This document shows, piece by piece, positions 4,313 through 26,980 of a DNA stretch of 27,612 bases. The stretch comes from Candidatus Zixiibacteriota bacterium. Lineage in GTDB: Bacteria > Zixibacteria > MSB-5A5 > DSPP01 > RBG-1. Where the stretch lies: the NCBI GenBank assembly GCA_044870015.1, contig JBIOYE010000160.1:1-27612 (forward strand), in the 5' to 3' direction. The notes beneath the pieces are model-generated. The model saw nothing but the letters and a program-made list of their open reading frames with translations. It did not search any database and had not been told where the DNA came from. A program made the translations under genes and the position numbers. Numbering within the stretch: the first letter of the stretch is position 1; every line of letters begins with the position of its first letter.

Positions 4313-4351
4313 AACACTCACCACCTTTCACTAGGTTAAAACGTTAAAAGT

Positions 4352-4416
4352 AAAAAACCACTTGGCTTAGAAGCTTTGGGCTTGAAAGCTCAAGTGGTTT
4401 CCGTAAAACTCACTTA
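4352..4416 (-). promoter_or_regulatory. Putative terminator/antiterminator switch in the csp 5' leader
   Basis: Terminator AAACCACTTG...CAAGTGGTTT(TTT), 10-bp stem plus inner AGCTTT/AAAGCT stem. Upstream AAGTGAGTTTT can pair with the same 5' arm. Confidence 0.55.
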
Positions 4417-4496
4417 TCTGACTCTTTAATAATTAACACGGAAATTCGTCTACAATTCATTAATTATAAGCTTATTTCTTCAATCTGAATGCCTTA

Positions 4497-4524
4497 ATTA
4501 TAATCATTATTTGTTTAAAGTCAA
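4497..4524 (-). promoter_or_regulatory. Promoter of the csp gene, giving a leader of about 180 nt
   Basis: TTGACT (4524-4519), 16 nt, TATAAT (4502-4497). Confidence 0.65.
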
Positions 4525-4562
4525 TAGCCAATATCTATATTTTCGACAGAATTTTACAAAAA

Positions 4563-5057
4563 TTAATTCTTTATTTCCACAATTTCTCCCCAGATTTCCT
4601 CCTGGTCGATATTGAGTGTGCCGTAACTGGGTAAACCGGTGTTTTTATTGCCGGATAAACTGCCTGGATTGAACATCAGGCAGTTTTCGAGCTTCTGGTT
4701 ATAAGGGGTATGGGAGTGACCGAAAACTATCACATCCAGATTCCGGTTGACTTTGTCGTAAACTTTTCTCTCCAGATTATCCGGGGCGCCATAGCCGTGA
4801 TAAATCCCAATTTTTTTCCCTTCCAGTTGGAAAATCTCTATTTCCGGCAGAATTTTCTTAACCCTTCCCTCATCCATATTCCCCCACACCGCGTAAACTT
4901 TTCCCAATTTCTGAAGCTCCTGCAAAACCTCCAGATTGGTAAAATCTCCGGCATGCACTATGATATCTTCCGGGCTGACCTGCTTTACAAACTGGGGAGG
5001 TAATTTCTGAGCCCTTTCGGGAATATGGGTGTCAGAAATCACCAGAATCCTCTTCAT
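4563..5057 (-). CDS. YfcE/Vps29-like metallophosphoesterase
   Basis: Calcineurin-like motifs SDTH, HAGD, GNMD, HG, GHSH, NPGS. Confidence 0.9.
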   Translation of the reverse strand: MKRILVISDTHIPERAQKLPPQFVKQVSPEDIIVHAGDFTNLEVLQELQKLGKVYAVWGNMDEGRVKKILPEIEIFQLEGKKIGIYHGYGAPDNLERKVYDKVNRNLDVIVFGHSHTPYNQKLENCLMFNPGSLSGNKNTGLPSYGTLNIDQEEIWGEIVEIKN

Positions 5058-5149
5058 CTGTTTTTCTTCTTGTGACGTAACCTTCTTCTCATTTTCCGGC
5101 GCTTATGAGTTTTGATTTTTTTTCTTTTTCTCTTTTTCCCTGAGGGCAT
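5054..5149 (-). CDS. 31-aa basic peptide, AURKAIP1/COX24 (mS38/bS22-like) family
   Basis: MPSGKKRKRKKIKTHKRRKMRRRLRHKKKNR*. SD GGAGGTG at 5160-5154. The stop overlaps the phosphoesterase start (ATGA). Confidence 0.85.
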   Translation of the reverse strand: MPSGKKRKRKKIKTHKRRKMRRRLRHKKKNR

Positions 5150-5160
5150 TTTTCACCTCC

Positions 5161-5268
5161 TTTATGTCGAACGTAGTTGAGACATTTTATGTCGAGTTTA
5201 TTCGAGACCTCTTTTTCAAGTTTGGTGGTTCGGCTGGCTCACCATAAATCGAGACATTTGTGTCGAGC
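5161..5268. repeat. Degenerate GTCGA...TCGAGAC / TTCGACAAGCTCACC-like palindromic repeats
   Basis: Tandem TTTATGTCGAACGTAGTTGAGAC and TTTATGTCGAGTTTATTCGAGAC, then TTCGGCTGGCTCACC and TCGAGACATTTGTGTCGAG. Confidence 0.5.
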
Positions 5269-5303
5269 TAATGGTTGGGCTGGTTCAGCATATCTTAAAA
5301 ACT

Positions 5304-5585
5304 TTAGCTTTGCTTTATAATCAGACTTTTAAATTCATTGGAAGGTTTAAACACCGGAACTTTGCGGTCCGGCACCGGAACTTCTTCTCCGGTGCGGGGG
5401 TTTCTGGCTTTGCGGGCTTTGCGGGCTTTGATCTTGAAAGTTCCGAAACCTCTGATTTCGATGTTGTTGCCGTTTTCTAATGTTTTTTTGACTGCTTCTA
5501 AAAATTCGTCGACCACCGCGGCCACATCCGATCTGGTCAGCCCGGTTTTGCTGGCCACCATCTCCACCAAATCAGCTTTGGTCAT
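5304..5585 (-). CDS. HU/IHF family DNA-binding protein (IHF-beta-like)
   Basis: MTKADLV start, IEIRGFGTF, ARNPRTG, VPVFKPS. SD AAGGAG. Confidence 0.95.
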   Translation of the reverse strand: MTKADLVEMVASKTGLTRSDVAAVVDEFLEAVKKTLENGNNIEIRGFGTFKIKARKARKARNPRTGEEVPVPDRKVPVFKPSNEFKSLIIKQS

Positions 5586-5681
5586 AAAAAACTCTCCTTT
5601 GCTTAATGTTAAGGTAACAGGCTTGATACATCGCCATCCCTTTGGGATAAGATAAAATCTTTTTTGGGATAATCAAATATT

Positions 5682-6578
5682 TTATTTAAGCTTATATAAA
5701 TATTGCAGCTTGGGCGAAAAATTTTCGGCCTTGCTCAATTCGTCCACCTTATTCAGACTCTCGGAAAGCACGTCCCAGAACGTCACCTGTCGCGCTCTTT
5801 CCTTGATGGTGCGGGGTTTCCCCTTGATGCCCGCCATCTTGGCCGCTATTTCAATAGCGTCTTCCAGATCTCCTAATTCATCAATCAGTTTTAACTTTTG
5901 GGCCTGGCGTCCGGTAAAAACCCGCCCGTCGGCAAGTTTGTAAACCTGGGAGGAAGCGAGGTCCCTTTCTTTAACGACCACCTCCACAAACTGGTCATAG
6001 GTGTCATTGATGACCTGTTGCAGATACTCTCTTTCTCTGGGAGTTATGGAGCGCGCGAACGACCCGGCATCTTTCATCTCTCCGCTTTTGATTACCTCAA
6101 ATCTGATTCCCACTTTTTTCAGAAGTTCTTCAATTATAGGGATTTCAAAAATGACTCCGATGGAACCGGTGATGGTGCCGGGATTGGCAACTATGGTATC
6201 CGCGGCGCAGGCGATATAATATCCTCCGGAGGCACCCAGGCTCCCCATCGAGGCCACTACTGTTTTCCCCTTTTCCCGCACTTTTCTTATTTCCTCATAT
6301 ATTTCCTGCGAAGCCGCCACCCCTCCGCCCGGTGAATCGATATGAATGATCAAAGCCGGAATGGAAGAGTCATCTCCGAATTTTTTGAGCTGACGAATGA
6401 CGTTGGCGGAACTGGAAATCACTCCGTGCACATCGATTATGGCTATTTTCTCCCCGAAATCTAGGGCAACATTATTGTCTTCATATAGGGCCCCAAAGAA
6501 AGCAAGAAGTATCATTCCTAGAAATAAAATAAAGCAGGCGGCAATTATCGAAGCTAAGATGATATCTTTTTTCTTCAT
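5682..6578 (-). CDS. sppA: Signal peptide peptidase SppA, short (36K) type, S49 family
   Basis: N-terminal TM helix, IDSPGG, SMGSLGASGGYYIA, TITGSIGV, DGRVFTG. Confidence 0.93.
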   Translation of the reverse strand: MKKKDIILASIIAACFILFLGMILLAFFGALYEDNNVALDFGEKIAIIDVHGVISSSANVIRQLKKFGDDSSIPALIIHIDSPGGGVAASQEIYEEIRKVREKGKTVVASMGSLGASGGYYIACAADTIVANPGTITGSIGVIFEIPIIEELLKKVGIRFEVIKSGEMKDAGSFARSITPREREYLQQVINDTYDQFVEVVVKERDLASSQVYKLADGRVFTGRQAQKLKLIDELGDLEDAIEIAAKMAGIKGKPRTIKERARQVTFWDVLSESLNKVDELSKAENFSPKLQYLYKLK

Positions 6579-8531
6579 TTAGCTGGCCGGTACGTAGATT
6601 TTAAGTCTCTGTCCTGGTTTTAGCTTGCGGGGGTTCATTAGATTGTTCCAGTCCTTCAATGAGCGCAAACTGGTTCCAAACGATTGAGCTATTCCCCATA
6701 AGGTGTCCCCCGATTTTACTATATAAATTAGCGCCTTATGGGTGGCTTTGTCAATAAAATTATCATCCTTTTGAGCCAGGGAAGTTACCAGAGGTATTTT
6801 TATGACGTGGCCCTGAATTAAATAATCTTGCTTTTCCATACCGTTCAATTGCCTGATCTGGGAGGGGGTGGTATTGAATCTTTGGGCTAATTCAAACAGG
6901 CTGTCCCCCGATTTTACTCTATACCTGATTAATTTTTGTTGCGCTATGGCTTTGGGCTTGACGGTCGAGGCAATTTTGGGAGAAGAATTTTTCTTTATCA
7001 CCTCGCTGGCGGCATATTTTTGGCTCACAACCACGGGTATTTTTATGGGCTGTCCCCGTCTTAATTTGGCCTTGGTCGACAAATTGTTGGTCTTGGCTAA
7101 AGTCACAGTGGAAACTCCGTATTTGTAGGCAATCCGCGAGAGATTCTCTCCTCTTTGGACTTTGTGAGTTACCCAGTAGGTTTTCTTCTGCACCGGGAGT
7201 TGGTTATAATAGCCCCAGAATACTTCGGAGCTGTTCTTGGGAATTCTTAAATTATAGTCGTAAACATGAGGAGGAGTTATGTCCCGCAAGAGTTCCGGAT
7301 TTAGCTCCCGTAAAGTTTCTATATCGGTGTCCAGTACCTTGGCTATCGATTTCAAATCCAGGCATTTATCAATCACTACTTCATCATACACCAGAGGTGG
7401 TTCCGGGGTTACGTAAAAACCGTACTTCTCCGGGTTTTTGGCAATTATCGCTGAAGCCATAAACAGAGGCACATAGTTATAGGTCTGTCTTTTCAGCTTC
7501 AAGCCCCAGAAATCTCTTTTGTTTTGTCTGACCACGGCCCGGCCGATTCCCCCTTCGCCGGCGTTGTAAGCCGCTAAAGCCAAATTCCAGTCCTTGAAGG
7601 TGTCATATAAAAAGGCCAGATAATTGCAAGCCGCGTGAGTGGATTTTACAAAGTCCCTTCTCTCATCCATCCACCAGTTGCGGTCCAAATCGTAATTTCT
7701 GCCGGTGCTGGCGATGAACTGCCAGAAGCCCACCGCATGCGCCCAGGAATAAGCCTTGGCGCTGAAACCGGATTCGATGAAAGGCAAATAAACTATATTC
7801 TCCGGCAGGTTTTTGCTTTTGATGATTTCCAGCATCAGAGGCATATACTTTCCGGAGCGTTTCAGATATTTTTCAAACGGCTTTCTTCCCACGGTCTGTA
7901 AATAATTCAGGGCTTTCATGACCCGGGCATTGTTCTCTATGGTGATTTCGTAAGTCGATTCAGACCCGGATGGCTCTTCCCCTTTTAATAAATCTTCAGG
8001 TATAGTTTCGACCCCGTTATCTTTTTTGATATTCTTGAGGTCTTCAAATCTCTGAACAAAGGCGGAAACCGAGCTTTCATCTGAAAGTTCCCCTAAGGAT
8101 TCCAGGGTTTCTTTGTAATCTTCCTCTATCTCATGGGTAAGTTTATTGAATTCTTTGGTATAATCTTCGTCTCCGTCCGGGTCCAAGTCTAGGTCCGACA
8201 AGGTCGCCAGCCCCTTTTCGAAGCAACCCTGAGCTTTCTTCCATTCTTTTTCTTGATTGAAAAGTACCCCCTGGGCATAATAATCTCTAGCTTGTTGCAA
8301 TAGCAACTTAATGGTATCCTCTTCCGCTGGAAAGTTGTCTGCTTTATCTGTGACAAGAGCGCTATCCAGTCCATCCTGAACAGCTTCGGTAGTTTTGGAG
8401 CTGTCTTTATCTGTTTTAGCAGTGGCTGGCGGCTTATAAGCTGTCGACCGGACCACTGGTTTGGAGCATCCCATTAGCGCCAGCATAAAGAAACTTGCTA
8501 CTATTATTAAACCGATTACCATTTTTTTCAT
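6579..8531 (-). CDS. mltD: Lipoprotein lytic murein transglycosylase with three LysM domains (MltD-like)
   Basis: Lipobox LMGC, SLT motifs IESGF, AVGFWQFI and ALAAYNAGEG, three LysM repeats (HKVQRGENL, YRVKSGDSL, YIVKSGDTL). Confidence 0.88.
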   Translation of the reverse strand: MKKMVIGLIIVASFFMLALMGCSKPVVRSTAYKPPATAKTDKDSSKTTEAVQDGLDSALVTDKADNFPAEEDTIKLLLQQARDYYAQGVLFNQEKEWKKAQGCFEKGLATLSDLDLDPDGDEDYTKEFNKLTHEIEEDYKETLESLGELSDESSVSAFVQRFEDLKNIKKDNGVETIPEDLLKGEEPSGSESTYEITIENNARVMKALNYLQTVGRKPFEKYLKRSGKYMPLMLEIIKSKNLPENIVYLPFIESGFSAKAYSWAHAVGFWQFIASTGRNYDLDRNWWMDERRDFVKSTHAACNYLAFLYDTFKDWNLALAAYNAGEGGIGRAVVRQNKRDFWGLKLKRQTYNYVPLFMASAIIAKNPEKYGFYVTPEPPLVYDEVVIDKCLDLKSIAKVLDTDIETLRELNPELLRDITPPHVYDYNLRIPKNSSEVFWGYYNQLPVQKKTYWVTHKVQRGENLSRIAYKYGVSTVTLAKTNNLSTKAKLRRGQPIKIPVVVSQKYAASEVIKKNSSPKIASTVKPKAIAQQKLIRYRVKSGDSLFELAQRFNTTPSQIRQLNGMEKQDYLIQGHVIKIPLVTSLAQKDDNFIDKATHKALIYIVKSGDTLWGIAQSFGTSLRSLKDWNNLMNPRKLKPGQRLKIYVPAS

Positions 8532-8564
8532 TATTCCACCTTTGTTTCTATTCTAATTCGTTGA

Positions 8565-8593
8565 TATATATGTAAATACTCCAACCTTGTCAA
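8565..8593 (-). promoter_or_regulatory. Possible promoter of mltD-sppA
   Basis: TTGACA (8593-8588), 17 nt, TATATA (imperfect -10). Confidence 0.4.
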
Positions 8594-8600
8594 GATAATT

Positions 8601-9518
8601 TTAATGGGCTTGCTCAAATTTACCTAAAATAGTCCCAACCGGATTATCCTGCTCTATATCAATCCACTCTATCTTTTTATCGGCTCGAAACCAGGTTAAT
8701 TGCCTTTTGGCATAATTCCTGGTCCCCTGCTTGAACTTCTCCAGAGCTTCATCCAGCCCGATTTGATCCTGCAGGTAGGCCTCCATATCCAGATATCCGA
8801 AGGTTCTCAAGGCTGGCAGCTGAAAAGAGTAGCTCCTGGCTATTAGGTTCTTGACTTCTTCTAAAAAGCCGTTTCCAATCATTTTCTCCACCCTCATATT
8901 TATTCTATGATAAAGTGCTTTACGCTCCAGGTTTAAGCCAAATTTGATAAAGTTCAAACTTTTATCACTATATTGCCCTTTTTCCTGCCATTCTGAAATC
9001 GATTTTCCGGTCAACTCGTAGACCTCCAGCCCCCGGATGATTCTGATTTCATCGGTGGGGGAGATTTTCTCTGAAGTCCTAGAATCCACTCTTTTTAACT
9101 TCTGATATAAACTTTCCAAACCCAATCTCTCTTTTTCCTTTCTTAAAACATCTCTCAATTTATAGTCTGCCGGAGGTCCCTGAAAAAGACCCCATTCCAG
9201 GGCTTTTAGGTATAAACCGGACCCTCCTACTATTATCGGAAGTTTTTGGCGAATAAAAATATTATTTATCGCTTCCGTGGCTTTTTTTTCATATAACCCG
9301 GCTGAAAATCTCTCATCCGGATATACTATATCGATCAGGTGATGTACTGCCCGGGCTTGTTCCTCTTTAGTCGGTTTGGCAGTTCCTATATCCATTAACT
9401 TATAAATCTGCCGGGAATCGCAGGAGACGATTTCCCCATTTAACCTTCGGGCTAACTCTATTCCGACTGTGGTTTTCCCTATAGCGGTGGGACCCACAAT
9501 GGTTAACACTGTTTTCAT
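8601..9518 (-). CDS. miaA: tRNA dimethylallyltransferase
   Basis: GPTAIGKT P-loop, DSRQIYK, GTAKP, VGGSGLY, YAKRQLTWFR. Confidence 0.97.
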   Translation of the reverse strand: MKTVLTIVGPTAIGKTTVGIELARRLNGEIVSCDSRQIYKLMDIGTAKPTKEEQARAVHHLIDIVYPDERFSAGLYEKKATEAINNIFIRQKLPIIVGGSGLYLKALEWGLFQGPPADYKLRDVLRKEKERLGLESLYQKLKRVDSRTSEKISPTDEIRIIRGLEVYELTGKSISEWQEKGQYSDKSLNFIKFGLNLERKALYHRINMRVEKMIGNGFLEEVKNLIARSYSFQLPALRTFGYLDMEAYLQDQIGLDEALEKFKQGTRNYAKRQLTWFRADKKIEWIDIEQDNPVGTILGKFEQAH

Positions 9519-9584
9519 ATGTTTTTTTTGGCGAGGAGAAAATCAGGTTGACATTTGATAGAGTTGAAATTTTTGTGATGGAAA

Positions 9585-11348
9585 TTACGGCCGTCCGAAC
9601 TTGTGGTTGATCTCTTCCAGCGGGATTCGGACTAAAGTGGGACGCCCGTGCGGGCAGATATAAGGGTTATCAGTGGCAAACAATCTGTCGAATAAAGAGT
9701 TCATCTCTTCGGTGGTTAGCTTATCCCCGGCTTTGACCGCGGCTTTGCAGGCGAAGGTGGAGGTTATGGCTTTGATGCGGTCATTTCCTGGTTTGAAATT
9801 GGCCGCCAAATCCGTCAAAATCTCCTTGAAAAAGTTGCCGGAATTTTTATTTCTGATACCGGAAGGAACCCCGGAGACCACTACGGTCTTTCCTCCCAGG
9901 GGCTTGACCTCAAAACCTAATTCTTCCCAGACCGCTAAATTTTCATCAAAGAATGAAAACTCCAGAGGGGTCAATTCTAATGATTGGGGAAAAAGCAGTT
10001 GCTGGACTGTTGGTTTTTTGCTGGCCAAGTTTTTGGTGGCTTCTTCATATAAGATTCTCTCATGGGCGGTATGCTGGTCCATGACGATTAAACTTTCTTT
10101 GACGGCCGCTAAAATATAAGTATTGGCTAATTGCCAGAAATTGCTAATCCCGTAATAATCTTCTGTTTTTTCAGCCAAAACAATTTCCGGTTCCACTTTT
10201 CTGTCGAAAATTTCTTTCAAGATTGTTTTCTGTTGGGTTTCAACTGTACTGCTTTTGGTTTCGTAATTTCCCAAGGACTCTCTGACTAAACTGTGCCTTT
10301 CACCACCCATTGTGGGAAACACGGTTTTTTCACCGACCGCTTCGTATACCGGCATAACCATTGTTGAGCTTAAAGTCTTTTTGATGGCTAAATAAACCAG
10401 ATCATGCGCCTGTTTTTCATTGGCGAATCGGACTTCTAATTTCTGGGGATGGACATTGACATCCACTAATTGAGGAATGACTTCCAGAAAAAGATAAATC
10501 AGAGGATATTTTCCTTTGGGCAACAATTCTCCGTATCCCAACTGCACTGCATGCAATAGACTCCGGTTGGAAATAATCCTTCCATTGACAAAAAATCTGA
10601 TTTCACCTCGGGTGGCTTTGGCAAGCTCCGGCTTACCCAAAAATCCAGCCACCTGAATTTCGTTGGGTTCTTTTCTTATCTCCAGCATTTTCAAAAAAGT
10701 CTCTTTCCCCACAATTTCCCGTACTCTTTGTGATGAAGTGGTTTTGGCATTTAAATTTAATACTTCCCGATTGTCAATTTTCAATTTGAAGGAGACCGAA
10801 GGGTTCGCTATAGCGAAATTGGTAACCAAATCAATTATGTGTCTATTTTCGGTAACTTCTGATTTTAAAAATTTTCTCCTGGCCGGAGTGTTGTAAAATA
10901 AATCGGAGACAGTGACGATAGTTCCCACATTGGCGGGAGTATCTTTAGCTTCCCTAATTTCACCGGTTTCAATTTTAAGTTTGGTTCCATTTACGGAATC
11001 TTTGGTTTTAGTAACCATTTCAACTTTTGATACTGAAGCAATGGATGGTAGCGCTTCTCCCCGGAAACCCAGGCTGGAGATATTGAACAAATCTTCTGCC
11101 GAAGAAATTTTACTGGTGGCATGCCTGGAAAAAGCCAGCTTAGCGTCCGAAGCATCTATTCCCCGGCCGTTATCCACTACCCGAATCAGTTTTTTCCCCC
11201 CTTCTTTTATCTCAATCTCAATTTGAGTGGCTTCGGCATCCACAGAATTTTCAACCAGTTCTTTGACCACGCTGGCCGGGCGCTCCACCACTTCACCGGC
11301 CGCAATTTTATTGATTAATTCTTCTGATAAAATTTTAATCCGGTTCAT
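9585..11348 (-). CDS. mutL: DNA mismatch repair protein MutL, endonuclease-proficient type
   Basis: KIAAGEVVERPASVVKELVENS, GFRGEAL. C-terminal DQHTAHERILYE, QQLLFP clamp motif, ACK and CPHGRP. Confidence 0.98.
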   Translation of the reverse strand: MNRIKILSEELINKIAAGEVVERPASVVKELVENSVDAEATQIEIEIKEGGKKLIRVVDNGRGIDASDAKLAFSRHATSKISSAEDLFNISSLGFRGEALPSIASVSKVEMVTKTKDSVNGTKLKIETGEIREAKDTPANVGTIVTVSDLFYNTPARRKFLKSEVTENRHIIDLVTNFAIANPSVSFKLKIDNREVLNLNAKTTSSQRVREIVGKETFLKMLEIRKEPNEIQVAGFLGKPELAKATRGEIRFFVNGRIISNRSLLHAVQLGYGELLPKGKYPLIYLFLEVIPQLVDVNVHPQKLEVRFANEKQAHDLVYLAIKKTLSSTMVMPVYEAVGEKTVFPTMGGERHSLVRESLGNYETKSSTVETQQKTILKEIFDRKVEPEIVLAEKTEDYYGISNFWQLANTYILAAVKESLIVMDQHTAHERILYEEATKNLASKKPTVQQLLFPQSLELTPLEFSFFDENLAVWEELGFEVKPLGGKTVVVSGVPSGIRNKNSGNFFKEILTDLAANFKPGNDRIKAITSTFACKAAVKAGDKLTTEEMNSLFDRLFATDNPYICPHGRPTLVRIPLEEINHKFGRP

Positions 11349-11349
11349 T

Positions 11350-13938: not shown

Positions 13939-13939
13939 A

Positions 13940-14968: not shown

Positions 14969-14970
14969 AA

Positions 14971-16125: not shown

Positions 16126-16128
16126 AAT

Positions 16129-16431: not shown

Positions 16432-16455
16432 AAGCCCTCCTTGAAATTTAAAATC

Positions 16456-16484
16456 AATTTAGCATAAGCCAAAAAAGTTGTCAA
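16456..16484 (-). promoter_or_regulatory. Extended -10 sigma70 promoter of the lapA...mutL operon
   Basis: TTGACA (16484-16479), 17 nt ending TGC, TAAATT (16461-16456). Confidence 0.7.
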
Positions 16485-16571
16485 ACTAAAATTAGGATTA
16501 TGTTTTAAGATGCTGAAGGCAATTTCAAAAACCGGTGAATAGGGCTGCACCTTCAAACAAGCTCTCTTATC

Positions 16572-17240: not shown

Positions 17241-17344
17241 AGCACCCCCTTTTAGATTGCGACAACTTGACTTAAATCTCCATGAGAATTATTCATAAAA
17301 TCTAAAACTTATACGCAACTAACTTATTATCGGTTAATCCGATC

Positions 17345-17908: not shown

Positions 17909-17909
17909 T

Positions 17910-19616
17910 TTAATCCAGGGCTTCTTCTAAAAGCTGTGAGGCTTGCTTCTCTGCCAAAGCTGTTATTTTTTTGCCGGAGAGCATCCGGGCAATTTCTGTA
18001 ACTCTTTCTTCTTTGGATAATTTTTTAATCCTGGTCGAAGTCCGCTCCCCCTTTACTTCCTTGAAAACTCGGTAATGCTGGTCAGCCACGGAGGCAATCT
18101 GCTGTAAATGGGTAATGGCTAAAACCTGATGAGATTTGGCTAACTCTTTGAGTTTTTTCCCGACTTTATGTGCCACCTCCCCCCCGATACCGGAATCAAT
18201 TTCGTCAAAAATCAGAGTGGAAACATTGTCCGCGCCAGCCAATGCCGATTTCAGCGCTAACATTACTCTGGAAATTTCACCGCCGGAAGCAATTTTAGCT
18301 AGGGGTTTTAACTCCTCGCCCACATTGGGAGAAATCATAAATTCAATCTGGTCCAATCCCTTCTCATCTATTTTATATTTTTTGTCTTGTAATTGAATTA
18401 ACCCGTTGTCATCTTCCTGATAACTCATCTGAATTTCAAACCTAGTCTTCTCCATCCCCAAAAAAGTCAGTTCCTGACTTATTTTTTTCTGCAGCCCTAA
18501 AGCTTTTGTCTTTCTGGCAGTTGAAAGTTTTAGGCAGTTTCCTTTCATAGTTTCAGTAGCTTTGACAATTTCTTTTTCTAACTTCTCAATAAGCTCTGAC
18601 CGGTTTTCCAGCAGATTTAAGCTTTTCTTAATCTCTTCTGCATAAACCATTAATTCCTCCGGACTCTTGCCATATTTTTTCTTGAGCTTAATCAGTAAGT
18701 CCATTCTCTCCCTGATATGATTTAACCTTTCCGGGTCATACTCCAATTTATCTTTGTAATTATCGAAATGTCGGGTAAGTTCCTTGATTTGGATGTAGGA
18801 GTTTTCCAAAAGTTCTTGCTGTTCTTTCAAACTTTTATCCCAGGTTGCGGCTGAATTAAGCTCCTTTTGAGCTGCAGCTAATCGTCTTAAGACCGAATCT
18901 TCCGATTCCTGCAGGTTATCTAAAATTGTTCCGACCGATTGAGAAATTTTCTCCACATTTTCCAACATAGATTTTTCCTGTGCCAGTTTTTCTTCCTCAC
19001 CTGGTTGAGGATTTGCTTTTTCAATTTCTCCTAACTGAAAGGAGTACAATTCTTTTTTATCTTGAGCTATTTTTCCCTGCTCTTTTAAGCTGCTTAAATC
19101 AGCCAACTCCTTTCGTAAATCCAAATAGTTATTTCTGACAGCATTTAAAAGGTCAGTGTAATTCCCGAAATTATCCAGAAAATCGATATGCTTTTTGTGG
19201 TCCAAAAGGGATTGGTGCTGATGCTGTCCATGCAGGTCTACCAAAAAGTCTCCGATGACCTTTAAGGTTGTTAAAGCTGCGGTCTTGTCGTTGACAAAAT
19301 TTTTGCTTCCCCCCTTGCTGGATATCTCCCTGCGAATAATGACAGAATTTTCTTGGCCTGACAGTGATTCATTTTGCAGAAAAACTGCCAAAGGAGAATT
19401 TTTATTGACTTCAAAAATAGCCTCCACCACAGAGTGAGAAGCCCCTGTGCGAATCAGGCCTGAATCGGCTTTCTCACCCAAAATCAGACTTAAAGCTCCG
19501 ATTAGAATTGACTTTCCCGCGCCCGTGGAACCGGTTAAGATGTTTAGACCGGTGGGAAAGTCTACCTCTAAGTTTTCAATGATGGCGTAATCTTTAATCC
19601 TTAGTGTTTTCAGCAT
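17910..19616 (-). CDS. recN: DNA repair protein RecN
   Basis: MLKTLRIKDYAIIE start (ATG 19616), Walker A GSTGAGKS, HGQHQHQ, ASGGEISR, FDEIDSG, ITHLQQIAS. Confidence 0.97.
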   Translation of the reverse strand: MLKTLRIKDYAIIENLEVDFPTGLNILTGSTGAGKSILIGALSLILGEKADSGLIRTGASHSVVEAIFEVNKNSPLAVFLQNESLSGQENSVIIRREISSKGGSKNFVNDKTAALTTLKVIGDFLVDLHGQHQHQSLLDHKKHIDFLDNFGNYTDLLNAVRNNYLDLRKELADLSSLKEQGKIAQDKKELYSFQLGEIEKANPQPGEEEKLAQEKSMLENVEKISQSVGTILDNLQESEDSVLRRLAAAQKELNSAATWDKSLKEQQELLENSYIQIKELTRHFDNYKDKLEYDPERLNHIRERMDLLIKLKKKYGKSPEELMVYAEEIKKSLNLLENRSELIEKLEKEIVKATETMKGNCLKLSTARKTKALGLQKKISQELTFLGMEKTRFEIQMSYQEDDNGLIQLQDKKYKIDEKGLDQIEFMISPNVGEELKPLAKIASGGEISRVMLALKSALAGADNVSTLIFDEIDSGIGGEVAHKVGKKLKELAKSHQVLAITHLQQIASVADQHYRVFKEVKGERTSTRIKKLSKEERVTEIARMLSGKKITALAEKQASQLLEEALD

Positions 19617-19624
19617 CTTGAATT

Positions 19625-20503
19625 TTAACTTCCGGCTTTCGGCTTTACTCCCCAATTCAGTTTTTGTCTTAAAATTTCAAAAAATGACCTCTCCGGAAAA
19701 GTTATCAGGTTAACGGTATGCCCGGCTTTTTGAATTAGGATTTCATCTCCGGATTTTATGGGATGGGTAATCTGGCCGTCCACTGTCAAAATGGCTTCTT
19801 TCTGAGGGGTTTCTACTTTAATTTTTATAGTTTCATCTGCCGGAAAAATAATCGGTCTGACCGCCAAACTCTGGGGGCAGATGGGGGATAAAATTATGGC
19901 TGCCATTTTAGGATTTACTATTGGCCCTCCGGCTGACATCGAATGAGCGGTGGACCCAGTGGGAGTGGCAATAATTAATCCGTCTGCCGAAAAAGAGCCC
20001 ACAAATTCTTTATTGTTAGAAATGTGCAAATTTATTAAGCGTGATATTCCCCCTTTCTCGATTACCACCTCGTTGAGGGCATACCAATGATGGTTGTGAG
20101 CAAAAGAGGCCTGCAAGACCATTCTTTCTTCTATTTTAAAATCTTTATTCTTGATTCTGCTCAACGCGTTTTCTATGTCGGCGGTCTGAATCTGCGTCAT
20201 AAAACCCAAGCCACCCAGATTGATTCCCAAAATGGGTGTCTTGTGGTCAGCCACGGCTCTGGCAGTAGTCAGGATAGTTCCGTCACCTCCCAGGGCTAAA
20301 ATTATATCAGAGCTTGCCCACAAATCTTCCTTGGCGACTGATTTATTTTTTATCTTCACCGAGGAGTTGGAGCTTAAAAATTCGGCCGCCTCCTGGTTGA
20401 AAGTGATTTCGATTTGGTTTATATCGCACCAGCTGGAAATTCTCTCCAACATCTCCACCGCTTTTGGTCTTTTGATATTGGCAATGGCCCCGATTTTTTT
20501 CAT
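19625..20503 (-). CDS. nadK: NAD kinase
   Basis: LGGDGT, GINLGGLGF, LNEVV, DGLIIATPTGSTA. Confidence 0.96.
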   Translation of the reverse strand: MKKIGAIANIKRPKAVEMLERISSWCDINQIEITFNQEAAEFLSSNSSVKIKNKSVAKEDLWASSDIILALGGDGTILTTARAVADHKTPILGINLGGLGFMTQIQTADIENALSRIKNKDFKIEERMVLQASFAHNHHWYALNEVVIEKGGISRLINLHISNNKEFVGSFSADGLIIATPTGSTAHSMSAGGPIVNPKMAAIILSPICPQSLAVRPIIFPADETIKIKVETPQKEAILTVDGQITHPIKSGDEILIQKAGHTVNLITFPERSFFEILRQKLNWGVKPKAGS

Positions 20504-21360
20504 TTTATTCTGGAAAGTAAATAGTCGGCTAACTCCTGCAAAATTTTCCCGTTGGATAAATTTTTTAAACTGGCTTGGGCTTCCCGGGTTAATTTGCGGG
20601 CCATGATTTTGGAATTTTTAAGCCCCACAATTTTAGGATAAGTGGCTTTTTTCTTCAAATTATCCGAGCCCACTTTTTTTCCTATTTTTTCCTCTTTCCC
20701 TTCCACATTTAAGATATCATCTGAAATCTGAAAAGCCAGCCCTATTTTTTCTCCGTAGTTTGAAAGGATTTTTAATTTCTGGGAATCTGCTCCACCTAAA
20801 ATGGCGCCGGCCCTGATGGAGGCTTTGATCAAGGCCGCGGTTTTATTTTTGTGAATGAACTCCAGCTGGCTTAATTTTATTTTCTTTCCCTCCGCTTCCA
20901 AATCAGCGATTTGACCCCCAATCATTCCTTGTCTGCCTATGGCTTGGGCCACTTCGGATAAAACTTGCAAGTTTCCGGTCTGGGCCAAAAGTTGAAAAGC
21001 CAGAGCCATCAAAGCATCTCCGGCCAAGACGGCAATCCCTTCTCCGTAAATTTTGTGCAGGGTCGGTCTTCCCCTTCTTAAATCGTCGTTATCGATACAA
21101 GGCAGGTCATCATGTATCAGAGAAAAGGCATGTAAAAGCTCGATAGCGCAGGCGGCTGGAACGGCCTGGGGCGTGTTGCCATTTATCTGTTCAGCGGCGG
21201 CTATTACTAGAATGGGTCGTAATCTTTTCCCGCCCCCTAAAACCGCATAGCGCAAAGCCCGGGACAACACTTGCGGTTTTTGATTAGAGGCAGGCAGATA
21301 ATTTTCCAATGCCTTTTCAATAATTTTTCTTTTGCCCACTAAATATTTCTCTAAATTCAT
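20500..21360 (-). CDS. ispA: Farnesyl/geranylgeranyl diphosphate synthase
   Basis: GGKRLRP, first Asp-rich motif HDDLPCIDNDDLRRG, KTAAL, FQISDDIL, GKKVGSD. Confidence 0.93.
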   Translation of the reverse strand: MNLEKYLVGKRKIIEKALENYLPASNQKPQVLSRALRYAVLGGGKRLRPILVIAAAEQINGNTPQAVPAACAIELLHAFSLIHDDLPCIDNDDLRRGRPTLHKIYGEGIAVLAGDALMALAFQLLAQTGNLQVLSEVAQAIGRQGMIGGQIADLEAEGKKIKLSQLEFIHKNKTAALIKASIRAGAILGGADSQKLKILSNYGEKIGLAFQISDDILNVEGKEEKIGKKVGSDNLKKKATYPKIVGLKNSKIMARKLTREAQASLKNLSNGKILQELADYLLSRIK

Positions 21361-21596
21361 TCTTCCTTATCTTCTATTTCCAAATCTTCCAATTTGAATT
21401 TCCCAGAACCGGTTTTGATTAATTTCTTGACTTTGCTTTCTGCTTCGCTCAATTTTTTGGTGCAGATGCGGGACAGCTCTATTCCTTCCTGAAAGATTTT
21501 TAAAGACTGGTCTAAAGATAAATCTCCCGATTCTAATTGACTCACAATTTCTTCTAAACGATTCAAGGCCTTTTCAAAGCTGCTTTTCTGTTTCAT
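21357..21596 (-). CDS. xseB: Exodeoxyribonuclease VII small subunit
   Basis: SFEKALNRLEEIVSQLESGDLSLDQSLKIFQEG. Confidence 0.95.
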   Translation of the reverse strand: MKQKSSFEKALNRLEEIVSQLESGDLSLDQSLKIFQEGIELSRICTKKLSEAESKVKKLIKTGSGKFKLEDLEIEDKEE

Positions 21597-21598
21597 AT

Positions 21599-22819
21599 TT
21601 ACCAGCTTTTCTCAATTTTTTCTACTTTGCTTTTAAATTTTCCTTTATGCAGACGAACCTCGACCGAATCTTCCAATTTTAGCTTGCTTACATCTTTGAT
21701 TAACTTTAAATCTGGCAGTTTGTAACAGACACTATAACCTCTTTCCAGAATTGACAGAGGCGACAAGGCATTTAACTTTCCCATCACAGTGGCTAAATTT
21801 TGCTTGGAATTTTTTAGGCTTTGATTTACCAGCCACCCCATTTTTTTCAAAAGTTCATCAATTCTTTGACCTTTTTGAGTCAAAATATCCCAGGGTCTTT
21901 TCATACCGTAACTTTCTACTGCTGTTTTTACTCTGATTTTTGCTTCTGCAATTTGTGCCAGCTGATATTCTATTGAACTTTTGATTAAGTTTTTTATTTG
22001 AGAGAGAATTTCTCTTCTGTCTTTGACCACTAATTCAGCGGCAGCTGATGGAGTCGGTGCTCTCAAATCAGCCACCAAGTCTGCAATGGTAAAATCAATT
22101 TCATGTCCGACCGCGGATACCACAGGTATTTCGGAGGCATAAATGGCTCTGGCCACTATCTCTTCATTGAAAGCCCATAAATCTTCCAAGGAACCGCCTC
22201 CTCTGCCTGTGATTATTACGTCCACATTTTGAAATTGATTAAAATCCGTGATAGCTTGGGCAATCTCCCAGCTGGCTCCTTCTCCCTGTACTCTTACCGG
22301 ATTTAAAATTATTTCAACTGAAGGCATTCTGCGATGGAGAATTTTAATCATATCTTGGATAGCGGCACCGGTGGGAGAAGTTACTATTCCGATAGTTTGA
22401 GGAAATTCCGGTAGTGGTTTTTTATGCTCTTCCTCGAAAAACCCTTCTTTAAACAGTTTTTCTTTCAGCTGCCTGAACGCCAATTCCAATTTTCCTAATC
22501 CAGCCGGAACAATATCTTCCACATAAAGTTGATACTGCCCCTGCTTTTCATACAGGGAAATATTGCCGTAGGCAACCACTTTCATCCCGTCTTCTATATC
22601 AAAATTGAGAAAGTCACCGATATCTCTCCACAAAACGCATTTTATTTGAGCATTTTCATCTTTTAAAGTAAAATAGCGGTGACCGGAAGAATGATGGATA
22701 AAATTGGAAATTTCTCCTTCGATCCAGAGAGTAGGTAAATTAATCTCTAAAAGAGCTTTTACCTCGCGGGTAATTTCGGAGACCGTATATATTTTAATCT
22801 GTTCTGTTAAATTTTCCAT
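21599..22819 (-). CDS. xseA: Exodeoxyribonuclease VII large subunit
   Basis: OB-fold GEISNF...GHRYFTLKD, VTSPTGAAIQD, GRGGGSLEDLWAFNEE, VGHEIDFTIAD, APTPSAAAE. Confidence 0.97.
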   Translation of the reverse strand: MENLTEQIKIYTVSEITREVKALLEINLPTLWIEGEISNFIHHSSGHRYFTLKDENAQIKCVLWRDIGDFLNFDIEDGMKVVAYGNISLYEKQGQYQLYVEDIVPAGLGKLELAFRQLKEKLFKEGFFEEEHKKPLPEFPQTIGIVTSPTGAAIQDMIKILHRRMPSVEIILNPVRVQGEGASWEIAQAITDFNQFQNVDVIITGRGGGSLEDLWAFNEEIVARAIYASEIPVVSAVGHEIDFTIADLVADLRAPTPSAAAELVVKDRREILSQIKNLIKSSIEYQLAQIAEAKIRVKTAVESYGMKRPWDILTQKGQRIDELLKKMGWLVNQSLKNSKQNLATVMGKLNALSPLSILERGYSVCYKLPDLKLIKDVSKLKLEDSVEVRLHKGKFKSKVEKIEKSW

Positions 22820-22838
22820 AATCGTTAGATTTTTTTAA

Positions 22839-22868
22839 AATATAAGTCAGCCGCAACTGGCTTGTCAA
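22839..22868 (-). promoter_or_regulatory. Promoter of the xseA operon, overlapping a hairpin downstream of folD
   Basis: TTGACA (22868-22863), 18 nt, TATATT (22844-22839). The spacer contains the inverted repeat AAGCCAG/CTGACTT. Confidence 0.55.
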
Positions 22869-22932
22869 ATCTTATCTGGAAAAGTTATTCTGACTTTGGT
22901 TCAAACTCAAGAGGAATAATTCTCAAACAAAA

Positions 22933-23817
22933 TTAATCTTTGATGCTGTTTTGAATCTCGGCCGCTTTGATGGTGTTATTCAGAAGCATGGCAATGGTCA
23001 TGGGTCCGACTCCTCCCGGAACCGGAGTTATGGCAGAAGCAATTTTGCTTACCTCTTCAAAATCCACATCCCCTACTATTTTACTTTTAGCGGAGGCCGG
23101 ATCCGGAATCGAATTAATTCCGACATCTATGACCACCGCCCCAGGTTTGACCATATCTCCCGTGACAAATTGAGGCTGTCCGATAGCTACCACCAAAATA
23201 TCTCCAGTTCTGGTAACTTTCGGCAAATTGCTGGTTCCTCGGTGACAGATGGTCACCGTAGCATCCGCTCCTTTGGCTTTTTGGACCAGAAGGGCGGCCA
23301 ATGGTTTTCCTACAATATTTCCCCTACCCAATATCACTACATTTTTTCCTCCGGGGTCATGGCCGGACCGCATAAGCAGTTCCTGAATCCCTAAGGGGGT
23401 GCAGGGAACAAAAATCGGTGTCCCTAAAAATAACATTCCTAAGTTGTAGGGGTGAAACCCGTCCACATCTTTGTTTCTATCGACTGTGGAAAAAATATTA
23501 AACTGATTTATATGTTCCGGCAAAGGTGACTGGACTAAGATTCCATGGATTTTTCTGTTTTGGTTCAATTCTAAAACTTTGCGGATAAGCTCTTTTTCTG
23601 TAGTTGACTCAGGCAACTGGATTACTGCCGAATTCAATCCCAATTCCTGGCAGGCCTTGGCTTTGTTGCGGACATAAATGGCTGAAGCTGGGTTATCTCC
23701 TACAATTACAGCTGCTAAACCGGGAACAATTCCCTGACGCTTTAGAGCCTCGACTTTTGATTTTAATTCATTTTTTATCTCTTGAGCAATTTTTCTCCCG
23801 TCAATTATCTTAGCGAT
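22933..23817 (-). CDS. folD: Bifunctional methylenetetrahydrofolate dehydrogenase/cyclohydrolase, apparent ATC start
   Basis: The frame is open upstream of the track start: IAKIIDGRKIAQEIK...PGLAAVIVGDNPASAIYVRNK... Downstream KDVDGFHP, PCTP, GRGNIVGKP and VPGGVGPMT. An in-frame TAA lies 14 codons above 23817 with no ATG/GTG/TTG in between. Confidence 0.93.
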   Translation of the reverse strand: MAKIIDGRKIAQEIKNELKSKVEALKRQGIVPGLAAVIVGDNPASAIYVRNKAKACQELGLNSAVIQLPESTTEKELIRKVLELNQNRKIHGILVQSPLPEHINQFNIFSTVDRNKDVDGFHPYNLGMLFLGTPIFVPCTPLGIQELLMRSGHDPGGKNVVILGRGNIVGKPLAALLVQKAKGADATVTICHRGTSNLPKVTRTGDILVVAIGQPQFVTGDMVKPGAVVIDVGINSIPDPASAKSKIVGDVDFEEVSKIASAITPVPGGVGPMTIAMLLNNTIKAAEIQNSIKD

Positions 23818-24652
23818 CTTCTTCCTCCTCCGATAAGTAGGCTTCTTCTCTTACTTCATCAGTCTGGGCTTTGGGAACATCGATTCGTAACCTCTCAATT
23901 TTTTTGGCCTCACCGCTCTTTTCATCGATTTCCAAAAGTATGGCGCTTAATTTAATATCTTTGTCAGCCACCGAAAACCGGCGGGGCAGCTGTTTGACAA
24001 ATCTTTCCAAGGCATCCTCTTTGTTTATCCCGATTACCGAATGATGCGGACCGGTCATGCCGGCATCCGTGATATAAGCGGTTCCGTTGGGTAAAATGGT
24101 TTCATCCGCGGTTTGGACATGGGTATGTGTTCCTAATACAGCCGAAACTCTGCCGTCCAAATACCAGCCCAGGGCTTGTTTTTCGGAAGTGGCTTCGGCA
24201 TGGAAATCGACAACGATTACATTGGTTTCGGATTTTAATTTTTCAATCTCTTTATCAGCCGCTCTGAAAGGGCAATCCAGCTGAGCCATAAAAATTCTTC
24301 CCTGCAGATTTATGACGCCGATGTTGATACCGGATTTGGTTTTGAAGAGACCGGAACCGGACCCCGGAGTTCCCGGAGGAAAATTGGCCGGTCTTAACAT
24401 ATTAGGGGTCTGCCCTATGAATTCTAATAGCTCTCTGCGATCCCAGACATGATTGCCGTTGGTCTGGCAATCCACTCCGTAATGAAAAATCTTGTGGGCT
24501 ATTTCTTTGGTGACACCGAAACCGCCGGCGGCATTTTCTACATTGGCTATGACAAAATCAACCGTATATTTTTTCTTCAAAGGGGTAAGCAGAGTGGCTA
24601 CCGCGTAGCGGCCCGGCTTTCCCATTATGTCGGCGATGAATAAAATTACCAA
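23810..24652 (-). CDS. ymdB: YmdB-like 2',3'-cyclic nucleotide phosphodiesterase (TIGR00282 family)
   Basis: NVENAAGG, GNHVWD, RPANFP, DFHAEATSEK, GTHTHVQT, TDAGMTG, downstream of rny. Confidence 0.93.
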   Translation of the reverse strand: MVILFIADIMGKPGRYAVATLLTPLKKKYTVDFVIANVENAAGGFGVTKEIAHKIFHYGVDCQTNGNHVWDRRELLEFIGQTPNMLRPANFPPGTPGSGSGLFKTKSGINIGVINLQGRIFMAQLDCPFRAADKEIEKLKSETNVIVVDFHAEATSEKQALGWYLDGRVSAVLGTHTHVQTADETILPNGTAYITDAGMTGPHHSVIGINKEDALERFVKQLPRRFSVADKDIKLSAILLEIDEKSGEAKKIERLRIDVPKAQTDEVREEAYLSEEEEDR

Positions 24653-24780
24653 CTAAACTCCGTTCTAAGTCCGCCTTTGGCGGATTGGTCTCGGAAACAT
24701 TTTCTGCCAAAAAAATATAATCTAAACTGATTTAATTTACAATTGCAATATCTTTCCACAATCCAGTTATTGTCCACGAA

Positions 24781-26343
24781 TTACTTGGCATAATCCACCG
24801 CTCTAGTCTCTCGGATAACAGTCACCTTAATCTGCCCCGGATATTCCACCTCGGCCTGAATCTTTTGAGCAACCTGACCGGCCAAATCCTTGGCTTGCTC
24901 ATCATTTATTTCCGAATGCTCCACAATCACCCTGATTTCCCTGCCGGCCTGGATAGCATAAGACTTAGAGACCCCTTTGAAAGAATAGGCAATCTCTTCT
25001 AATTTCTCTAATCTCTTAATATAATTTTCCAATGACTCTCTTCTGGCACCCGGACGGGAACCGGAGATAGCGTCGGCCGCCTGAATCAGTATAGGATAAG
25101 GTGATTCAAAAGGCACATCCCCATGGTGGGAAGCGATGGCATTTACCACCAGCTGTTCTTCTCCATATTTTCCGGCTACTTCAGCTCCTAATTGGATATG
25201 AGTTCCTTCGGTATTGCGGTCTAAAGCTTTTCCGACATCATGCAAAAGTGCCGACCTCTTGGCAATATTAGGGTCTAAGCCTAACTCGGCTGCTAAAAGT
25301 CCGGCTAAAATTGCCACCTCTTTGGTATGCTGCAGAACATTCTGACCGTAGCTGGTGCGGTAATTTAGTTTACCTAAAAGCTTTATTAACTCCGGATGCA
25401 TGTTATGAATTCCTACTTCAAAACAGGCCTGCTCTCCGGATTCTCTGATTATGTTCTCCATCTCCTTTTCAGTTTTGGCTACCACCTCTTCGATTCGGGC
25501 CGGATGAATCCTGCCATCCAGAATAAGTTTTTCCATAGCCATCCTGGCAATTTCCCGGCGAATTGGGTCAAATCCGGATAAAATCACGGCCTCCGGGGTA
25601 TCGTCCACTATTACATCCACTCCGGTGGCGGTCTCAAAAGAGCGGATATTTCTTCCTTCTCGGCCGATAATTCTACCCTTCATCTCATCATTGGGTAGGG
25701 TGACTACGGAAACTGTGGTTTCAACCGTATGCTCTGCCGCACAGCGTTGAATAGCCGAGATGATAATATTCTTGGCTTCCCGGTCCGCATTCTGCTCGGC
25801 CTGCTCTTTGATCTCTTTTATTAGCTGAGCCGCCTCCTGCCGGGCCTGGGATTCTAAATTTTCAATCAGCTGTCTTTTGGCTTCCTCCTGGGTCATCTGG
25901 GCGATTTTCTCTAACATCAGATTCTGGTCCGCAATCAATCTTTCCAGATCATCCTCTCTGGTTTTAACCGCCTTCTCTTTGGCCTGAAGCACTTTCTCCC
26001 GGTTGAGAATTTCCCGGTCCTTTTTGTTAAGAATATCTACTTTGCGATCTAAGTTCAGCTCCTTTTCCTGTAATCTCTTTTCGATTTTCTGCATCTCCAT
26101 CTTCTTATTCTGCATCTCCCGCTCGAAATTCAGCTTGGCTTTGTACCATTCATCTTTGGCTTCCAAAATGGCTTCTTTTTTCTTTATCTCCGCCTCTTTT
26201 TCCGCTTCCTGGATGATTTTTTTGCCCCATTGTTCTATTTTGGCTAAGCGGGTCTCTCCTACCCGGCGGCTGATGACCCAGCCCAAACCGAACGCCACCA
26301 AACCTATTCCAACCGCTATTCCAACCCAAATCATGTTTGTCAT
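24781..26343 (-). CDS. rny: Ribonuclease Y
   Basis: N-terminal TM anchor, coiled coil, KH motif [15 protein letters not shown] domain [28 protein letters not shown]. Confidence 0.98.
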
Positions 26344-26357
26344 TTTCTCCTCCTTCT

Positions 26358-26390
26358 TTCGACCATGCTCAAGACGGTGAGCTTGTCGAA
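26358..26390. repeat. TTCGACAAGCTCA-type palindrome just upstream of the rny SD
   Basis: TTCGAC...GCTCA-AGACGG-TGAGC...GTCGAA hairpin. Confidence 0.55.
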
Positions 26391-26412
26391 CCGTAATCTA
26401 AGTTACACCAAT

Positions 26413-26480
26413 AAAAAACCCACTTGAATTAGTCTCCCTCCGCTATTGCGGGGAGGAAAAACCCAACTAATTTAAGTGGG
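26413..26480 (-). terminator. Long terminator-like hairpin between zapA and rny
   Basis: CCCACTT/AAGTGGG, A-C mismatch, AATTAGT/ACTAATT, asymmetric internal loop, GC-rich apical stem with AATA loop, ending in a U6 tract. Confidence 0.65.
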
Positions 26481-26512
26481 CAGAATAGGGCTATTAACCC
26501 TTTAATCTATTT

Positions 26513-26815
26513 TTATAACTCTACTTCTTCTAATTTATGATCTAACCATTCCAATAAATGAGAAGCCTTTTTCTCCACCTCCGAAAGTTGCTTTTCCTTT
26601 TCATCTCTTTCCTTGTACAGCTCATCGGCGATGTTCAAAGCGGCCAAAACCGCCACTCTGGTTGGTGAATATTGGGGCAATTTTTCGGCTACTTCTTTCA
26701 TCTTTTTATCGACATATAGGGCAACTTTTTCTACGTAAGTGATATCGGCTTCACTTTTTATAGGATAATCCTCACCATATATATGGACTTTTATGGTAGC
26801 TTTATTTAAAGACAT
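26513..26815 (-). CDS. zapA: Cell division protein ZapA
   Basis: VHIYGEDYPI, VALYVDKKM, RVAVLAALNIADEL. Confidence 0.92.
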   Translation of the reverse strand: MSLNKATIKVHIYGEDYPIKSEADITYVEKVALYVDKKMKEVAEKLPQYSPTRVAVLAALNIADELYKERDEKEKQLSEVEKKASHLLEWLDHKLEEVEL

Positions 26816-26951
26816 ATTGATTTTTTGGAATAGTTAGCTGTTTATTCTAACCCACTTAGGGGTTTTTATTATGACCTTATTTGTTTGTCTTTTGTTTGTG
26901 TTTTCTGTTTAAAGTTTATGGTTAAAAAACAGTTGATTTTACCTCTATTTC

Positions 26952-26980
26952 AAATTACCATCCTCAAACTTACTTGTCAA
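26952..26980 (-). promoter_or_regulatory. Extended -10 sigma70 promoter of zapA(-rny), giving a leader of about 130 nt
   Basis: TTGACA (26980-26975), 17 nt ending TGG, TAATTT (26957-26952). Confidence 0.7.

Follow-up and report, generated by a model that had tools for sequence, protein, structure and literature searches.

A candidate long-range antiterminator/terminator toggle enclosing zapA in the zapA-rny operon of Zixibacteria, and a separate terminator-like leader upstream of csp

The genes for RNase Y (rny) and for a cold-shock protein (csp) lie about 22 kb apart on a 27,612-nucleotide (nt) stretch of DNA from Candidatus Zixiibacteriota bacterium (GenBank assembly GCA_044870015.1, contig JBIOYE010000160.1, positions 1 to 27,612; hereafter the window). 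An original prediction, made from the sequence of this stretch, held that both genes are preceded by the same RNA switch, in which a strand B can pair either with an upstream strand A or with a downstream strand C that is followed by a U6 tract. All six elements were located as claimed, on the minus strand, which also carries all csp-, zapA- and rny-related genes. The rny gene (24781-26343) encodes a protein of 520 amino acids (aa) with the Pfam domains RNase_Y_N, KH and HD, and has the Shine-Dalgarno (SD) sequence AAGGAGGAG. Upstream of it lies zapA, an open reading frame (ORF) of 100 aa (26513-26815; Pfam ZapA, E = 6.5e-22), and this zapA-rny synteny is kept in 29 of 30 relatives from the same class. 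The csp gene is at 4109-4324 (Pfam CSD, E = 2.7e-29). The host metagenome-assembled genome (G000; 1.47 Mb, 76% complete) includes the window as its contig C160, and its closest relative, used here as the sister genome, is candidate division Zixibacteria bacterium RBG-1, whose RNase Y is 98% identical.

The region between zapA and rny is occupied by a long hairpin. In the window this is a compound structure of 62 nt (26419-26480; -26.8 kcal/mol) that begins 32 nt past the zapA stop codon. Its base, CCCACTT:AAGTGGG, joins the 3' end of element B (CCCACTTA, 26480-26473) to element C (CAAGTGGG plus U6, 26426-26413); it is followed by a second stem, ATTAGT:ACTAAT, and by an apex of the form CTCCC..GGGAG. 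The predicted B:C pairing is thus present, but as the base of a compound hairpin and not as a simple stem. The adjoining U6 tract (26413-26418) ends 69 nt 5' of the rny ATG at 26343, and by sequence and predicted fold the basal stem and U6 have the make-up of an intrinsic terminator. We compared this region across 18 loci (the window, RBG-1, three genomes labelled G011, G020 and G028, and 13 further Zixibacteria genomes) and found in each a hairpin of 54-109 nt with the base CCC(C)AC:GTGGG(G), then a T4-6 run (18/18 loci), with rny 12-75 nt 3' of it. The basal stem is near-invariant, with one U.G variant, whereas the second stem (GATTTTGCC:GGCAAAATC in the largest group) varies through G-U pairs and compensatory changes and the apex is free to vary. 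RNAalifold, applied to the 18 hairpins, recovered only the invariant basal stem.

A scan of the minus strand of the window found no promoter between C with its U-tract and the rny start, and across loci no conserved promoter was found either inside the hairpin or between C and rny. A strong promoter was found only upstream of A and zapA. In the window it is predicted at 26952-26980 (TTGACA-17 nt-TAATTT, with a TG at the extended -10 position); it was read from the sequence, and a simple promoter scanner gave it no score because its -10 box matches at only three of six positions. An equivalent promoter, CTTGACAAA followed after 17 or 18 nt by TAATAT, stands 16-41 nt 5' of A in 13 of 15 other loci, the distance being 95 nt in the genus of the window. 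As judged by these scans, rny would have no promoter of its own, so that it would be transcribed through the terminator-like signal, which makes a role in attenuation plausible.

The 5' arm of the hairpin has a second potential partner on the far side of zapA. Element A (TAAGTGGGTTAGAATAAACAGCTAAC, 26833-26858), the putative antiterminator strand, lies in the zapA 5' untranslated region (UTR) and stops about 18 nt short of the zapA ATG; the originally predicted A corresponds to its core, TAAGTGGGTT (26858-26849). Element B (GTTAATAGCCCTATTCTGCCCACTTA, 26473-26498) starts 15 nt past the zapA stop, and its 3' end doubles as the 5' base of the terminator hairpin. The A:B duplex therefore encloses the whole zapA ORF, a span of about 340 nt, and at -24.7 to -24.9 kcal/mol it is approximately isoenergetic with the hairpin. 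We examined A:B in 17 loci from one Zixibacteria clade with the terminator. All 17 carry, in the zapA 5' UTR, an A of the form GTGGGG plus about 18 nt that is complementary to a B ending in CCCCAC; the GTGG(G/A) element is 19-57 nt upstream of the zapA start codon, and B follows the stop at a distance of 19-32 nt. When the hairpin 5' arm is taken together with the 14 nt upstream of it, a complement of 20-25 bp is found 329-355 nt upstream, just 5' of the zapA start, in 15 of the 17. Among about 860 segments of the 4.5-kb locus, A is the best complement of B in 11/17 loci and ranks within the top nine in 15/17.

Outside their cores, A and B change from lineage to lineage while remaining complementary. 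In the window, TTAGAATA..GCTAAC pairs with GTTAATAGC..TATTCTG, whereas the corresponding tails are GGGGTTGGAAGCAAAAA with TTTTTGCTTTTTAACCCC in G020 and GGGGAAAGAAAACAAAAG with CTTTTTGTTTTTGTTCCCC in the main clade. Because MAFFT split the GTGGGG anchor of A inconsistently, covariation was assessed by anchor-based, cognate/non-cognate and permutation tests. Cognate A:B pairs had a mean energy of -27.7 kcal/mol as compared with -21.4 kcal/mol for non-cognate pairs, with a block structure by lineage. With the cores removed and one representative kept per lineage, the cognate energies summed to -77.0 against a permutation mean of -50.0, and the observed energy was reached in 3 of 5040 permutations and in none of 1854 derangements. 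The 12 loci that could be compared free of gaps have U-A at position 6 in three cases and A-U in nine, and over positions 0-19 they contain 27 G.U and three A.C pairs.

Unconstrained RNAfold predictions from A to just before C paired the CCCAC of B with A in all 17 loci. When C was included, A:B was kept in 14 loci and B:C won in three (the window, RBG-1 and G028). A:B and B:C are mutually exclusive, and both are conserved in position in 17/17 loci; on these predicted folds the rny locus has what an attenuator calls for, namely a conserved alternative pairing upstream that excludes the terminator stem. In the window, a local hairpin of 5 bp is also possible between the A core GTGGGTT and the AACCC immediately 5' of it (26849-26864); a scanner scored it as a terminator-like site on the plus strand, and it seems to be genus-specific.

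We consider it most likely that the A:B/B:C toggle acts as a long-range antiterminator and terminator that sets read-through into rny, in what looks like a mode of control over RNase Y transcription not described before; we infer from the pairings and promoter arrangement described above that termination and antitermination do take place. On this model, one promoter would drive both zapA and rny. The transcript would carry A in its 5' UTR, as GTGGG(G) plus a lineage-specific purine-rich tail, and just past the zapA stop it would carry B, a complementary tail followed by CCC(C)AC. Next would come C, the GTGGG(G) at the 3' base of the hairpin, with the U-run and then directly the rny ribosome-binding site. 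If B pairs with A, a helix of 20-25 bp would loop out the entire zapA ORF; if B pairs instead with C, the intrinsic terminator would be completed. Since A:B can form while C is still to be transcribed, the default of the naked RNA would be read-through into rny, and anything that keeps A and B apart would favour termination at B:C. The two might be separated by ribosomes that start or finish translation of zapA, by cleavage of the leader or by a bound protein. The B tail starts some 4-15 nt past the zapA stop, and the A tail of some lineages ends near the zapA initiation region, a geometry from which one may speculate that ribosomes on zapA could be the modulator. A more specific version, which we think rather unlikely, is a translation-sensing attenuator in which full-length zapA takes the part of a leader peptide and the ribosome traffic on it decides whether the antiterminator forms.

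Several points weigh against the antitermination model. In most lineages the A and B tails are purine- and pyrimidine-rich, respectively, which inflates both their complementarity and the excess of G.U pairs, and the 17 loci represent only about six to seven independent lineages. The helix is shorter or shifted in G011 and in one other locus, and at csp a corresponding antiterminator found no support in a shuffle test, as described below. Moreover, in related Zixibacteria families that lack the U-run terminator, the zapA leader likewise seems to pair with the region past the stop codon. Among 31 loci that lack the CCCCAC terminator, the leader is the best partner of the 45 nt after the stop more often than expected, ranking first in six and within the top five in 14; the sequences are unrelated and no U-run is present. 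A bracketing helix without a terminator suggests that its primary role could be something other than antitermination. It may be that such a helix is older and more widespread in Zixibacteria zapA-rny operons and was co-opted by one clade for the control of termination.

The csp gene has a leader of about 165-175 nt, which begins at a promoter matching the consensus at 11 of 12 positions (TTGACT-16 nt-TATAAT, 4497-4524, minus strand) and ends at an extended SD, GAAAGGTGGTGA (gene with SD, 4109-4330). Within it, element B (ACCACTTG, 4398-4391) and element C (CAAGTGG plus U6, 4364-4352) form a terminator-like hairpin, AAACCACTTG..CAAGTGGTTT, with an inner stem AGCTTT..AAAGCT (4352-4400 with its U6 tract; -18.4 to -21.9 kcal/mol); judged by sequence and fold, CCACTTG:CAAGTGG at -18.4 kcal/mol with the adjoining U6 again resembles an intrinsic terminator. 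From the end of the U-run it is about 40 nt to the likely TTG start at 4312, or 28 nt to the GTG at 4324. The hairpin is 165 nt from the upstream gene, which encodes a metallophosphoesterase. Of the four csp paralogs in this genome, three have a hairpin plus U5-7 in a leader of 113-179 nt behind a near-consensus promoter, and so do their RBG-1 orthologs; the U-run is kept in all csp and rny hairpin homologues. The 11 leaders that were aligned have the invariant SD GAAAGGTGGTGA at the end, and share a 5' box, GTAAAG..GTkTTnGTTA. The same layout recurs in four other genera, one from the family of the window (G002) and three from two other families (G011, G020 and G028). In these last three, and in csp3 of the present genome, the stem is of the type CCACGA(A/G).../...(T/G)GTGG, which makes the CCACTTG stems of csp1 and csp2 a derived variant.

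The antiterminator that had been predicted at csp fared less well. Element A (TAAGTGAGTT, 4416-4407, or TAAGTGAGTTTT when taken as 4405-4416) can pair with B in a bulged 9-bp hairpin (-8.7 kcal/mol, z = -0.5), and in folds that stop short of C this pairing is present in csp1, with B pairing upstream in 8 of the 11 leaders (with the 5' box in G028 and G020). The best upstream complement of B, at -6 to -10 kcal/mol, is indistinguishable from shuffled sequences (z from 0.9 to -1.0), its position is not consistent across paralogs or genera, and the predicted A is conserved only in the sister genome. An antiterminator at csp is possible, and if there is one it is weak and unproven. As modelled from its promoter, 5' box, hairpin with U-run and extended SD, the leader probably attenuates csp transcription. 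It resembles the 5' UTR thermosensor and cold box of enterobacterial cspA (RF01766) in being long, in its strong promoter and 5' box, and in having structure before an extended SD, and differs in that the hairpin is followed by a U-run; the RF01766 model scored 32 bits (E = 1.3e-6), below its gathering threshold of 78, in an alignment that is mostly coding sequence and from which the leader helices are deleted. We also considered SD mimicry, in which the 5' arm of the hairpin would act as an anti-SD and the 3' arm as a mimic of the invariant SD GGTGGTGA; this was rejected since the 5-6 bp between B and the SD cannot outcompete the local hairpin. The csp leaders also have a box that reads GTGAGTTTT or GTTTTCGT, and some of them contain ATTGG or GTTGG, which is Y-box-like. 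The fourth csp paralog (contig C189, about 1491-1522) lacks a leader hairpin; downstream of it stands a bidirectional terminator, CCCCACTGGTGG..CCACTCAAGGTGGGG, whose base is again CCCCAC/GTGGGG.

Whether csp and rny share one system was addressed with a hairpin census and pattern searches, since csp hairpins align poorly and the shared signal is too short for specificity at the genome scale. The pattern CCACTT-N20-50-AAGTGGKTTTT has two matches in the window against 0.00 expected (100 shuffles). A looser pattern found only three true hairpins in the 1.47-Mb genome, at csp1, at rny and before a second csp gene (csp2, contig C139). Words of the AAGTGGG type are outside the 30 most frequent 8-mers genome-wide (16-88 copies each versus at least 500); together with the three hairpins, these low counts rule out a dispersed repeat or uptake sequence. 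Searches against Rfam brought no known family to threshold at either locus: at gathering thresholds a tRNA was the sole match in the window, and permissive scans of the csp and rny loci gave only the sub-threshold cspA match driven by coding sequence. The resemblance between the two loci is largely confined to this genus, the only one in which they have CCACTT/AAGTGG in common. Other genera have CCACGAAAG/CTTTCGTGG as the csp hairpin and CCCCACTT/AAGTGGGG as the rny hairpin, so that CCAC/GTGG plus a U-run is all that they share, and the stems of the two loci do not co-vary. The idea of a shared regulon thus rests on a short identity at the stem base. Such a base occurs at six of 122 intergenic terminator-like hairpin loci in this genome, and in RBG-1 a search for CCAC-N10-40-GTGGNTTTT gave 27 matches against 24 in the reversed control, several of them ordinary terminators at gene ends.

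These results bear on the explanations that compete with two separate elements. According to the original prediction, csp and rny carry the same riboregulator and belong to one regulon that a shared trans factor, for instance Csp itself, would read. The near-identity of A, B and C at two loci of this genome speaks for it, as do the retention of CCAC/GTGG plus a U-run at both gene families in four genera and the fact that four of the six CCAC..GTGG loci flank csp or rny; Csp proteins are also known to act as antiterminators in E. coli. The three elements do stand in the same order at both loci, but A abuts B at csp and lies about 340 nt away, across an ORF, at rny, and an A that is conserved in 17/17 loci and covaries with B at rny is neither significant nor conserved at csp. 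Against a shared family there are also the divergent stems outside the genus (CCACGAAAG versus CCCCACTT), the CCACGAA type kept by csp3, and the ordinary RBG-1 terminators built on the same base. Hairpins of this kind had been expected before further RNA-metabolism genes, and none was found among the 23 leader-type hairpins of this incomplete genome, no searches for helicase, pnp or rnr families having been made. A common regulon is therefore unproven and the two loci are probably not one system; we regard the regulon as improbable, and think it reasonably probable that two separate cis-acting elements, the zapA-rny toggle and the csp leader, are analogous and not homologous. It is more improbable still that both hairpins are ordinary terminators, of the metallophosphoesterase gene and of zapA, with the complementarity to A arising by chance. 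About one fifth of the terminator-like hairpins in this genome do lie within 110 nt upstream of the next gene on the same strand, the rny hairpin starts close behind the zapA stop, and A:B at csp is no better than shuffled controls. This explanation has to contend with a csp hairpin that is 3' of an 11/12 promoter, is well separated from the gene upstream and travels with the csp paralogs, and with an A:B pairing around zapA that is conserved in position and covaries.

A more serious alternative, though in our view still an unlikely one, is that A:B is mainly a device for mRNA processing or stability, such as excision of zapA by RNase III or shielding of the 5' and 3' ends, and that its overlap with the terminator is secondary. 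A helix of 20-25 bp or longer is a suitable substrate for RNase III, and little sequence separates A from the predicted mRNA 5' end. Predicted helices around zapA, of unrelated sequence, occur too in families that lack the U-run terminator, for example GATTTTGGG:CCCAAAATC in family f5 and a helix of -46 kcal/mol in family f3, and the ranks of the leader in the 31 terminator-free loci given above point in the same direction. The support from these other families is modest and their loci are phylogenetically clustered, and a helix unrelated to the terminator would leave unexplained why it ends exactly on the 6-8 nt of the terminator base in 17/17 loci. The intergenic hairpin could also be thought of as a reduced or divergent 6S RNA, which adjoins zapA in many bacteria and which the RF00013 model did not locate in five Zixibacteria genomes (G000, G001, G011, G020 and G028, four of them at least 97% complete). 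A 6S RNA should match the model and form a rod some 150-200 nt long, interrupted by a large central bubble; the hairpin is a near-continuous rod of 62 nt here and 54-109 nt in relatives, with small internal loops only, and RF00013 matched neither the window (E up to 10) nor eight related loci (E up to 1). As the hairpin base is also common to the A:B helix and the rny SD follows directly, we consider this the least probable of the alternatives; the 6S RNA of these Zixibacteria is either very divergent or absent.

The toggle proposed for rny has parallels in known systems. The B. subtilis infC leader contains a terminator/antiterminator attenuator controlled by L20 (PMC1865079). Like this leader and those of trp, pyr and T-box genes, the rny locus has a B-type strand that pairs upstream for read-through or downstream, followed by a U-run, for termination, and the element directly precedes the regulated gene. 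It differs from them in that some 340 nt separate the partners of the antiterminator, with a complete, functional gene of 100 aa between them in place of a short leader or leader peptide; it has no recognisable ligand, tRNA or protein site, and it stands between two cistrons. Gene-bracketing helices with partners hundreds of nt apart are also found in the rRNA processing stems cut by RNase III and in the L20 operator of E. coli infC-rpmI-rplT, where a pseudoknot reportedly forms by long-range mRNA pairing across a cistron. Those structures control translation or processing, whereas the rny helix would instead exclude an intrinsic terminator. In B. subtilis, RNase Y regulates its own synthesis through cleavage in the 5' UTR and at the start of the ORF, followed by decay by RNase J1 (PMC10303841). 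In both organisms the mRNA upstream of rny would be the control point for RNase Y synthesis; the B. subtilis gene has no zapA, terminator or long-range helix, and no sequence similarity was seen. A search of the available literature library found no paper on a zapA-rny operon or on the A:B/B:C structure.

RNase Y is the main endonuclease that initiates mRNA decay in bacteria without RNase E, and to our knowledge the setting of its level has been described only for Bacillus subtilis. With an antiterminator that extends across the whole upstream gene, attenuation would take on a new layout, and a cell-division gene would be tied to mRNA decay within one transcript. Comparative genomics would moreover have revealed, in an uncultivated phylum, a clear example of long-range mRNA structure with a function. 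Should the translation-sensing version hold, a candidate phylum would couple RNase Y synthesis inversely to the efficiency of translation, and hence to cold or other stress, and also to a cell-division gene.

The zapA-rny transcripts have further features. No obvious SD precedes zapA, either in the window (26816-26835, minus strand, TTCCAAAAAATCAATATG) or at the equivalent position of loci L066-L111 (for example ACTTGGCATTATG in the main clade), in contrast to rny and csp, which have strong extended SDs in the same genomes. The zapA mRNAs of L066-L111 have a U-rich box, GAG(G)TGTTTTAA, close to their 5' end, in the stretch that separates the -10 box from A. Eight loci of other Zixibacteria families (L041, L043, L045, L046, L056, L059, L064 and L081) have a predicted pairing of the zapA leader with the 45 nt past the stop, at -24 to -47 kcal/mol, with family-specific sequences and no U-run terminator after it; the 3' partner in L045 takes in both the SD and the start codon of rny.

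On either side of the operon, Pfam matches identify a ZapB gene (26994-27272, minus strand) and a YmdB gene (23810-24652, minus strand). Between the terminator and the rny SD, the window carries a copy of a dispersed mini-element (ACGGTTCGACAAGCTCACCGT, 26374-26394, minus strand), which is absent from RBG-1 and is not part of the switch. This copy has a compensated stem, ACGGT..ACCGT, and lies inside a 38-nt insertion. The mini-element is about 21 nt long (ATGGTTCGACAAGCTCACCAT) with inverted ends of 5 bp, and at least eight copies are present in this 76%-complete genome: the rny-leader copy, a second in the window at about 27285-27305 (minus strand), and others on contigs C5, C12, C14, C37, C57 and C78. 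Several of these copies stand just 5' of an SD and start codon.

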